A stretch of DNA of 33,748 nucleotides from the NCBI GenBank assembly GCA_017540385.1, contig JAFYBD010000096.1:1-33748 (forward strand), in the 5' to 3' direction. The position numbers were made by a program, and so were the translations under genes. Below the pieces are notes generated by a model. The model was not told the origin of the DNA and made no database searches. It worked only from the letters and a program-made list of their open reading frames with translations. Below are positions 17,488-19,311 of the stretch, in pieces (the stretch's first letter is position 1; every line of letters begins with the position of its first letter). This DNA is from Lentisphaeria bacterium (GTDB lineage: Bacteria > Verrucomicrobiota > Lentisphaeria > Victivallales > UBA1829).

Positions 17488-19200
17488 TTACTCCTGTGCT
17501 CGAACAAGAGCCAAACGAAATCCTACATCGGGCTCTCCGCTGTAGGAGAAGGCATTAGAGCGATTCGACAAGTTGCAACTACCATTAGCTGTACGATAAG
17601 AACCACCACGGATTACTTTTTTAGAACCTCCTGTAGCGGGTTTGTCGCCCTCTGTGTGATTTCTGAAACTCTCTATGTAATCATCCATACACCATTCTCC
17701 AACATTCCCAAGCATATCAAACAGACCTAACTCATTTGGGGCTTTTGTTCCAACCTGGTGTGTAATTAGATTTGAATTGGCTGAGAACCAAGCAATTTCT
17801 TCAAGCTTGTCACTTCCACTATATTTGTATCCTTTGCTCAGTGCCCCTCCACGTGCAGCATATTCCCATTGGGCATCCGTAGGGAGAGAAAACACATATC
17901 CCTCGGGACGTGTACCTTTTGTCAATGTGTTCAGTGTCTTGCAAAACTCTTGAGCATCGTTCCATGAAATGCCTGATACTGGTGTATTCTTTTTGCTTGA
18001 ATTGGTCCCCATCACGGCATCGCGCAGACCTTGAGTAACTTCAGTTATACCAATATAATATTTTTGATTGATATTTACATTATGACTTCTAAGCTTTATG
18101 TCATAGGCTGTATCAAATGAGTCGATCATTGTAAATGAGCCGGGTTGAACAGATGCCACAATTATTTTTTCATCTTTTACAGAGATTGTGAGCAGATTTT
18201 TCTCGTTAAAAGATATTGAGTTTAACAATGCCCCATAAAAAATCCTCTGTTGATAACTCCCTATTTCTTCTTTTTGTTTTTTTAGTTCCGCCATAGTTTT
18301 TTCTGCATTAGACCAATCCTTTTCTTCTATCTGTTTCTCTATTTCTTTTTTCAATGAATCGGTTCGGTTAGATGATTTCTTTTCTAATGCTTCACACTGT
18401 TTAGGATCAAGTTTAGAAAGAACAGTGAGACAGATTTTAAGTACAAAAGAATCAGAATAATCCGCAGCTATTTCTCCAATCGCTGCGTATGATTTGCATA
18501 TATTCGAAATAGATTTCTGACATGTCGCCTTTGCTTCCTTAAAATCAGTCGCATCCAATAAATTATCTATCTGTATTCCTGTATTCTTTATGTCGTTTAA
18601 TAGTGCCGCTCCTTTTTCTTGCCATGCCTTTTCTCTCCGCAAAGAATAATCTGCATTGATGAAAATAGAGAGAGGTCCTTTTATGAAGTCATTTTCAAAA
18701 TCTAAAACAGCTTGGCGCAAAGAAGCATTGTCTTCTATCCATTTTGCGTTTTGTTCAGCAATTACACTTTGTTGCTGTATTTGTGCAATGATTCTTTCCT
18801 TAGTTTTGTCATCAGTTGCACTAAGGCTTTGCTGAAAAAGAGAACTGATTGTGTTCAATGCTTTTCTCATTGCCTGAGTATGTTCGCCGAATGAGTGTTT
18901 CGGGTCATATTTGGCCGCAATGATCTTTTCAGCTCTGTTTTTTAGGGTGACTTCAGTCTTGCGTAAATCTTTCAGCTGATCGTCAACAGAAATATTGGAT
19001 TTCACTTGTACTTTTTTCTCTTCTGTTTTTATAGGTTGAATGGGTGTTTCATTTTTCTTGTTATTGGAATTGTTTGCCTCGCCTTGAATGTTCTGAAACT
19101 GTTTTAATTTTTCAAGATCCTCTTGAGCTTTTTTGTGTCCGCCCTTTGCTGCTTTTTCCAAATATATCATGCCCGTTTCAAAATCATCTTTAACAAACAT
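17488..19200 (-). CDS. Sel1-like repeat, helical region, and C-terminal FGE-sulfatase (SUMF1/DUF323) domain protein
   Basis: 570 aa. N-terminus YLEKAAKGGHKKAQEDL is Sel1-like. The C-terminus has GISWNDAQEFC, LPTDAQWEYAARGG, NELGLFDMLGNVGEWC, VIRGGSY and VGFRLA. It has one Cys after RGGSY, where catalytic FGEs as I recall them have a Cys pair (CHxSYC). Confidence 0.8.
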   Translation of the reverse strand: MFVKDDFETGMIYLEKAAKGGHKKAQEDLEKLKQFQNIQGEANNSNNKKNETPIQPIKTEEKKVQVKSNISVDDQLKDLRKTEVTLKNRAEKIIAAKYDPKHSFGEHTQAMRKALNTISSLFQQSLSATDDKTKERIIAQIQQQSVIAEQNAKWIEDNASLRQAVLDFENDFIKGPLSIFINADYSLRREKAWQEKGAALLNDIKNTGIQIDNLLDATDFKEAKATCQKSISNICKSYAAIGEIAADYSDSFVLKICLTVLSKLDPKQCEALEKKSSNRTDSLKKEIEKQIEEKDWSNAEKTMAELKKQKEEIGSYQQRIFYGALLNSISFNEKNLLTISVKDEKIIVASVQPGSFTMIDSFDTAYDIKLRSHNVNINQKYYIGITEVTQGLRDAVMGTNSSKKNTPVSGISWNDAQEFCKTLNTLTKGTRPEGYVFSLPTDAQWEYAARGGALSKGYKYSGSDKLEEIAWFSANSNLITHQVGTKAPNELGLFDMLGNVGEWCMDDYIESFRNHTEGDKPATGGSKKVIRGGSYRTANGSCNLSNRSNAFSYSGEPDVGFRLALVRAQE

Positions 19201-19227
19201 ATATTCCTTAGCTTTTTCATAATTCTT

Positions 19228-19311
19228 TTAAGGACTGTCGCCACAACCTGTGAGGGACATTGAAATGCAAGTTGCGGCTGCAATGAAGGCGAGAGAAAGT
19301 CTTTTTTTCAT
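19228..19311 (-). other. orphaned lipoprotein signal-peptide mini-ORF, in frame with the 17488-19200 gene
   Basis: My hand translation gives MKKRLSLAFIAAATCISMSLTGCGDSP-TAA(19228-19230)-KNYEKAKEY-ATG(19200). The frame is unbroken apart from the single stop. LTGC is a lipobox. Confidence 0.7.

Follow-up and report, generated by a model that had tools for sequence, protein, structure and literature searches.

A probably inactivated TvpA-like lipoprotein gene in an island at the valS 3′ end of a Lentisphaeria bacterium, and the conserved leader RNA that precedes it

Introduction

The locus described here raises the question of what a gene for a protein with a formylglycine-generating enzyme (FGE) domain is doing in a patch of low-GC DNA beside valS, when a single in-frame stop codon cuts its lipoprotein signal away from the rest of its reading frame. 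It lies on the minus strand of contig JAFYBD010000096.1 (assembly GCA_017540385.1, Lentisphaeria bacterium), the 33,748 nucleotides (nt) of which were analysed as a whole and are referred to below as the window. In our view a horizontally acquired gene has probably been inactivated here not long ago; its product would be a lipoprotein of the envelope with a binding domain that is TvpA-like and non-catalytic, and a structured leader RNA stands in front of the gene. Below we take up the nonsense codon, the protein, the island and the leader in turn, and weigh other explanations of the locus alongside the evidence that bears on them.

Results

The nonsense codon and the intact alleles

The full-length locus, from the ATG at 19311 to 17488, measures 1824 nt and is divided in two. 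An initial annotation made from the sequence alone described a 570-amino-acid (aa) open reading frame (ORF) with a signal peptide and lipobox 111 nt upstream, in the same frame and separated from it only by a TAA, and the sequence agrees on each point. The upstream frame opens with MKKRLSLAFIAAATCISMSLTGCGDSP, in which a basic n-region and a hydrophobic core lead into the lipobox L-T-G-C, the codon of its cysteine (Cys23) being located at 19243–19245; the TAA at 19228–19230 is codon 28 of the gene, is GAA in homologs and is the sole break before the 570-codon ORF. We defined a lipobox as [LVI][ASTVI][GAS]C at the end of a signal peptide that is joined to the mature protein, and by this definition the window allele does not encode a bacterial lipoprotein, as the stop splits the LTGC signal (19243–19311) from the ORF.

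A search of 5.8 billion protein clusters returned only a handful of full-length relatives, amongst them proteins of 607 aa (P0002, 86% identity) and 601 aa (P0003, 59% identity); the window protein's own 90% cluster additionally has an intact 607-aa version (P0136). A further relative of 361 aa (P0005, encoded at 1110–2195 of locus L003) consists of a signal peptide, the Sel1-like part and the helical stalk and stops before the FGE domain, which indicates that the family is modular. All four carry a signal peptide and a lipobox (LTGC, ITSC or LTAC) in an uninterrupted frame, have glutamate (GAA) at the position of the stop, and are lipoproteins by the definition above. The ancestral product had been proposed to be a surface or periplasmic lipoprotein, which these four sequences bear out; the alternative that homologs start at the internal ATG fails on their upstream signal peptides.

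The closest of these alleles is only one base away from restoring the frame. Its contig (L005) is 99.07% identical over window positions 17308–19566 and carries a G at 19230, a T in the window. Elsewhere in the gene the two differ by four non-synonymous and six third-position changes, from which it follows that purifying selection acted on the lineage until recently. A one-base difference from an intact, 99%-identical allele, in a window that appears to derive from a metagenome-assembled genome (MAG), is also compatible with a sequencing or assembly error in a plain, intact lipoprotein gene. The identical TAA is, however, found in an ENA assembly from another sample (L009), which has the same gene order and 10 mismatches over 5012 nt (99.8% identity), and in a Logan assembly (L010) whose contig was seen in three samples and is identical over 2562 nt. 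Both encode the exact 570-aa product, and the shared TAA means that it is not a sequencing error; we regard the error explanation as extremely improbable. Judged from these assemblies, the TAA is a genuine, recent G>T nonsense allele segregating beside an intact one, and the gene would have lost its function in the window allele. The earlier description of a fresh pseudogene or a cytoplasmic remnant is consistent with this single change.

Domain architecture and fold

PF03781 (FGE-sulfatase) matches the C-terminal part of the 570-aa protein, over aa 350–564, with a score of 127.7 bits where 23.3 would suffice (E 7.8e-37). In an AlphaFold model based on an alignment of 80 sequences (mean pLDDT 83.6, pTM 0.56), a short hairpin of helices and a disordered linker come first; nine long helices occupy aa 72–335, and a three-stranded beta extension leads from these into the FGE core. 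The FGE-sulfatase domain and the helical region of the initial annotation are thus both recovered. Of its Sel1-like N-terminus the resemblance stands but an above-threshold match does not, the segment scoring 17.0–23.6 bits with the Sel1 model (PF08238), which has a gathering score of 30.7, and covering half a repeat.

Among PDB sequences the top match is TvpA of Treponema denticola (2Y3C, E 8.9e-24), followed by PorK/GldK lipoproteins (about 2e-16) and then by true FGEs (about 1e-10), and a Foldseek search with the model also ranks 2y3c first (E 9.2e-16, target TM 0.71). A profile of the N-terminal helical module retrieved only its own family and fragments of it from 1.84 billion representatives, and on this evidence the helical stalk of about 260 residues is restricted to this small protein family. 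A scan of a genome collection with the family alignment, a collection from which the family and the window are absent, gave nothing but an FGE domain, 29% identical, from a Planctomycetota MAG. A phage collection yielded no matches other than FGE domains at no more than 37% identity and does not indicate a phage origin.

Catalytic FGEs possess an active-site cysteine pair, C-x4-C after RGGS, which binds copper. Where the Streptomyces coelicolor FGE reads RGGSYLCHDSYCN, the aligned window protein reads RGGSYRTANGSCN, so that the first copper-binding cysteine is replaced by threonine and the second is kept, the same pattern as in TvpA. No NCBIfam model, FGE-type models included, reaches its cut-off, the best being GldK (TIGR03525) at 88.1 bits against 350. 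The alignment accounts for the single cysteine that had been remarked upon after RGGSY, and it supports the view that the domain looks non-catalytic.

Could the protein nevertheless be a working FGE that matures the sulfatases of the host? It has the Pfam domain, the overall fold and the RGGS...C...GFR motifs of true FGEs (SUMF1; S. coelicolor 2Q17/6MUJ), and a sulfatase gene, the L137 ortholog of which has PF00884, is situated about 10 kb away. Set against this are the missing copper-binding cysteine, the failure of any FGE-type NCBIfam model to reach cut-off, the interruption of the gene, a helical stalk and lipid anchor that true FGEs do not have, and a sequence more distant from true FGEs than from TvpA. 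In addition, a radical-SAM gene near the sulfatase gene could be the host's own maturase, and the host may mature its sulfatases without an FGE; an enzymatic role is hardly conceivable. The radical-SAM and sulfatase genes occupy 27022–27798 and 28790–30511, their Pfam families being taken from the L137 orthologs.

A second possibility is a ring lipoprotein of the PorK/GldK type from a type IX secretion system (T9SS), given that PorK chains are the second-best PDB matches and GldK is the best NCBIfam match. The likeness is real in that the lipoproteins PorK/GldK and GldJ of Bacteroidota also employ an FGE fold without catalytic function for structural or binding purposes. The GldK score, however, is far under the equivalog cut-off, the match does not extend past the FGE core common to both, the N-terminal region is unrelated, the host belongs to another phylum, and there is no T9SS context, with no PorN, PorL or PorM neighbours. 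We hold this reading to be next to negligible.

The likeness to TvpA is closer, and extends to the FGE-type C-lectin fold, the N-terminal beta extension, the single cysteine at the second FGE position and, in the intact allele, the lipoprotein signal. TvpA-type proteins have been described as lipoproteins, predicted to be at the surface, with a C-lectin fold that binds ligands (PMC4891356), and related FGE-type domains act as non-enzymatic binders in conflict systems (PMC7159879). As no solved structure is closer than TvpA in either sequence or fold, the window gene might itself encode the variable protein of a diversity-generating retroelement (DGR), with its template repeat elsewhere in the genome. 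In favour of this, both proteins are lipoproteins, the beta extension that leads into the FGE core in the model is TvpA-like (PMC7159879), and the C-terminus has, by Foldseek, the C-type-lectin/FGE fold of DGR variable proteins. The locus itself speaks against it. No template-like repeat of the last 330 nt was found in the 33.7-kb window with template-adenine mismatches all allowed, and no reverse transcriptase is encoded in the window or on any homolog-bearing contig. Nor is the C-terminus hypervariable: the last 45 codons differ by 4% of nucleotides from L001, the lowest among the compared segments (range 4–22%), and by 41% from L002, where other segments differ by 16–42%, so that they are no outlier. 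TvpA also has nothing equivalent to the roughly 330 residues of Sel1-like and helical sequence that precede the domain here. A DGR variable protein is accordingly very unlikely.

The preferred reading is that of a new member of an already known kind of FGE-fold lipoprotein, the intact form of which would be an envelope-anchored, non-enzymatic ligand-binding protein of the adhesin or receptor type and not a sulfatase-maturing enzyme.

An island at the valS 3′ end

Over 17.5–20 kb the GC content falls from about 64% to 34–45%. A related Lentisphaeria MAG (JAQXFX010000006, L137) carries hisG, a PMT_2 glycosyltransferase gene, ParE, a ribbon-helix-helix (RHH) antitoxin gene, valS and rpoN without any insert; it aligns with the window through 17407 and resumes at 20217, with flanks 97–98% identical. 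The named proteins that cluster with RpoN likewise place the host in the Lentisphaeria. The window has two copies of the last part of valS, and it is the left copy, still joined to the original terminator and the ParE/RHH genes, that the valS 3′ end and terminator of L137 match. The left copy must then be the original, now displaced, and the 3′ end that valS uses at present came with the insert. An empty site in a relative, flanking direct repeats and deviant composition together mark a genomic island and establish, at the level of sequence, that the gene was horizontally acquired, as the initial annotation had held. The GC-rich hairpin between T and A runs within the insert would serve as a bidirectional terminator after the present valS, brought in by the island.

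No integrase, transposase or recombinase gene is present in the insert. The layout of the repeats would fit either a single crossover of a circle that carried a valS 3′ fragment or a site-specific event driven in trans.

A conserved structured leader RNA

A first DNA pattern from the region upstream of the gene gave no match in viral or metagenome collections, and a second gave none in viral contigs. A 17-base pattern from this region retrieves at least 120 metagenome loci, and nhmmer finds a core of about 300 nt in more than 80 loci among the matches listed (window copy 19647–19947, minus strand, E 1e-81). In 54 distinct copies the TTGA of the −35 element and three positions of the −10 element (T, A ... 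T) are invariant, the other −10 positions nearly so, and the alignment ends in GUCCGGC followed by a U run.

Between promoter and U run the RNA forms a hairpin on its 5′ side and a domain of several helices, which is closed by long-range pairing of 19810–19830 with 19688–19708. Of the 45 pairs predicted by RNAalifold, 18 show compensatory changes. For the 41 pairs tested, 98.7% of cells are paired, as against 85.2% in shuffled alignments and about 40% when partners are slid; double changes occur in 320 cells versus 92, and covariation is 0.411 versus 0.146, a value reached by none of 500 shuffles. The window copy adopts the consensus shape at −83.3 kcal/mol (z −5.3). Rfam 15 (4227 families) gave no match up to an E-value of 1 in the window region and none up to 0.1 for nine other copies. 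By these comparisons the leader is an undescribed, strongly conserved structured RNA.

The layout suggests how it might work. A terminator pairs 19698–19705 with 19666–19673 ahead of the U run and overlaps the 3′ strand of the closing helix, so that this strand, GGNNGGAC, also supplies the terminator with its 5′ arm; covariation of the NN bases in GGNNGGAC is with their partner in the closing helix and not with the terminator arm. A covarying, conserved, promoter-proximal domain whose closing helix is mutually exclusive with an intrinsic terminator is what riboswitches and attenuators show, and as in these the leader lies on the same strand as the main downstream ORF, in 39 of 40 non-redundant loci among the matches listed. 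It differs from known riboswitches in its lack of any counterpart in Rfam and in that the genes it precedes do not belong to one pathway. These are usually low in GC and very diverse, comprising lipoproteins, zinc-ribbon membrane proteins, kinases, adhesin-like repeat proteins and NusG-like proteins accompanied by polysaccharide genes. The leader probably acts as a conditional read-through switch. That it is a ligand- or factor-dependent antiterminator, the first of a new riboswitch or processive-antitermination class that heads mobile cassettes and governs many AT-rich accessory genes, is a substantial possibility that we put forward tentatively.

The spacer between leader and gene aligns with L003 at about 88–90% identity over 19380–19610, and the indels shift the frame, so that it is not coding. 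Two small upstream ORFs, a minus-strand one of 171 aa and a plus-strand one of 48 aa, were rejected as genes on the same ground, indels shifting their frame in homologous copies; where nucleotide identity is about 88%, roughly 15 of 48 residues are different.

Related cassettes and a missing partner gene

The initial annotation had envisaged that the neighbourhoods of homologs might hold partner genes lost here, and they do. In L002, L006, L007 and L008 a gene for 262–282 aa follows the lipoprotein gene, and imperfect inverted palindromic elements of about 90 nt flank the unit. The window has the upstream end element only, and the partner gene is gone. This double-hairpin end element, which finishes in a small terminator hairpin (19981–19993) and can also be written ...ACCGAGGC...CCCCAGCGAAGCGG, occurs in relatives as inverted copies at both cassette ends. 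Downstream inverted copies, missing from the window, are found in L001, L002, L006, L007, L008 and L011, and additional upstream copies in L003 and L011; located copies span L001 1890–1990, L002 2770–2870, L008 4540–4607 and L011 6804–6895. The element may be a transposition end or a host repeat.

The partner family comprises 39 clusters with invariant AESHY, N..QRPM, ERP and RHP motifs and has no Pfam match. A model of the partner (pLDDT 92.9) shows Foldseek likeness to family-4 uracil-DNA glycosylase (UDG), TDG and UdgX (E about 1e-5, TM about 0.5), and the predicted fold thus resembles that of the UDG superfamily. Units of this type are found downstream of pheT in L011, of a DUF1848 gene in L008 and of a gmhB-like gene in L003. 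The cargo of L011 is different, with small zinc-ribbon and membrane proteins, which makes the FGE lipoprotein an exchangeable cargo.

A cytoplasmic role for the truncated product?

An ATG at 19200 lies 27 nt past the TAA with AAGGA four bases before it, and re-initiation there could yield a 570-aa protein with a new cytoplasmic role, for example as a sensor like the FGS domains of conflict systems. The ORF is intact, the allele recurs across several samples, and FGS domains do occur in cytoplasmic conflict systems (PMC7159879), where a TvpA-like FGE/C-lectin domain is C-terminal and other modules are always N-terminal (Kaur et al. 2020, PMC7159879), the order also seen here. The methionine, on the other hand, is lineage-specific, homologs having leucine or isoleucine. 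PADLOC matches neither the window protein nor the partner of its relatives, and no NTPase, vWA, caspase or TIR neighbours are encoded in any locus examined. The window protein is also unlike FGS conflict systems in having no vWA, MoxR, STAND or effector-associated domains and no DGR, and export, not a cytoplasmic location, is predicted for the protein. A nonsense change of the same kind in the ParE gene next door is more readily explained by decay than by design. We think a selected cytoplasmic role unlikely, and the link to conflict or defence raised in the initial annotation finds no footing in the loci, which hold no NTPase, vWA, reverse transcriptase or effector neighbours.

The ParE toxin gene beside the island (16688–16951, minus strand) has its in-frame TAA at codon 13 (16913–16915); the codon is GAA in L137, so that this gene and the lipoprotein gene have undergone an identical GAA>TAA change, and the ParE TAA is present in L009 too. 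A mutator spectrum behind the two changes was rejected, G>T and C>A making up only 39 of 374 differences from L137, as was stop-codon reassignment, the essential genes valS and rpoN having no in-frame stops.

Features of the locus

Coordinates are collected in Table 1.

Table 1. Features of the island, the lipoprotein gene and its leader; positions refer to the window unless a related locus is named.
Feature	Position	Strand	Basis or remark
Displaced ancestral valS 3′ end (last ~28 codons and stop)	17308–17407	minus	colinear with L137 up to 17407
570-codon ORF, remainder of lipoprotein gene (intact-allele product 607 aa)	17488–19200	minus	ORF list
Beta extension and FGE/C-type-lectin-fold domain, aa 336–567	17509–18153 (Pfam match)	minus	Pfam match
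Helical stalk, aa 72–335	18196–18987	minus	AlphaFold model
Sel1-like hairpin, aa 1–44, then disordered linker	within 17488–19200	minus	sub-threshold profile match and AlphaFold model
27-codon remnant ORF: signal peptide, lipobox LTGC, GDSP, TAA	19228–19311	minus	sequence and homologs
Spacer/5′ untranslated region	19312–19660	minus	highly conserved with L003; promoter-like site 19389–19417, Shine-Dalgarno AAGGAG 19318–19323
Structured leader RNA, ~240 nt	19661–19897	minus	nhmmer, RNAalifold, covariation
Leader RNA promoter: −35 TTGAAT 19924–19929, −10 TAAATT 19902–19907	19902–19929	minus	conservation
GC-rich palindromic end element (...ACCGAGGC-hairpin-CCCCAGCGAAGCG)	19981–20060	minus	sole window copy, 0 expected by chance
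GC-rich hairpin between T and A runs	20164–20189	strand-neutral	terminator-like on both strands; absent from empty site
Present valS 3′ end, island-borne	20208–20307	minus	100-nt direct repeat, 91% identical to 17308–17407
Partner gene in relatives	L002 1916–2764, L008 3748–4536, L011 6001–6789		absent from window

Elsewhere in the window a second stretch of lower GC content (48–54%) holds a HepT/MNT (nucleotidyltransferase) toxin-antitoxin pair at 12989–13935, which is also present in L137. ARAGORN reports a 95-nt tRNA-Arg(ACG) at 7765–7859 that the Rfam tRNA model does not report at its gathering score, and a tRNA-Lys at 28615–28691 is the only tRNA detected by both.

Discussion

The history that we propose for the locus would begin with recombination in the final ~90 nt of valS, through which a 2.8-kb, low-GC insert (about 17408–20207) would have entered the chromosome of a Lentisphaeria bacterium. 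The original valS 3′ end would thereby have been displaced to one flank of the insert, and a substitute would have taken its place at the other. Transcription would enter the gene by way of the conserved promoter and the leader of about 240 nt, in which the terminator would compete with the closing helix and probably make read-through conditional. In intact alleles the signal peptide and lipobox would direct export and lipid anchoring at Cys23 of a protein whose mature part has, in order, one Sel1-like hairpin, a helical stalk of ~260 residues and the TvpA-like FGE/C-type-lectin-fold domain. In the window allele a G>T change would have turned codon 28 from GAA into TAA; translation from the native start would then end five residues past the lipidated cysteine, and the binding protein would no longer be exported. 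Re-initiation at ATG 19200 would give, at most, a cytoplasmic product that is probably useless.

Several observations weigh against this history. The 570-codon ORF has remained open throughout, at least three assemblies share the TAA allele, and the truncated form may have a selected role. Ligand binding is argued from fold likeness to TvpA, a protein itself without a known ligand, and the pTM of the model, at only 0.56, makes the arrangement of the domains uncertain. The promoter-like site at 19389–19417 could free the gene from its leader RNA. Finally, as the insert carries no integrase or transposase, the insertion mechanism is deduced from the repeat structure only.

Taken alone the gene is a modest case, that of a rare surface-type binding lipoprotein caught just after its inactivation, with intact and broken alleles side by side in populations in nature. 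Such coexistence is expected for surface proteins under phage or host pressure. The insert also illustrates how small, integrase-free cassettes can settle at the end of an essential gene. Of greater value than the lipoprotein is the leader RNA, with its very strong covariation, its dozens of copies and its absence from Rfam. Were it indeed a conditional antiterminator, it would constitute a new regulatory class that controls accessory genes and surface genes in a gut phylum that has received little study, and would decide whether foreign, low-GC surface genes are transcribed in Lentisphaeria-like bacteria of the gut and rumen.

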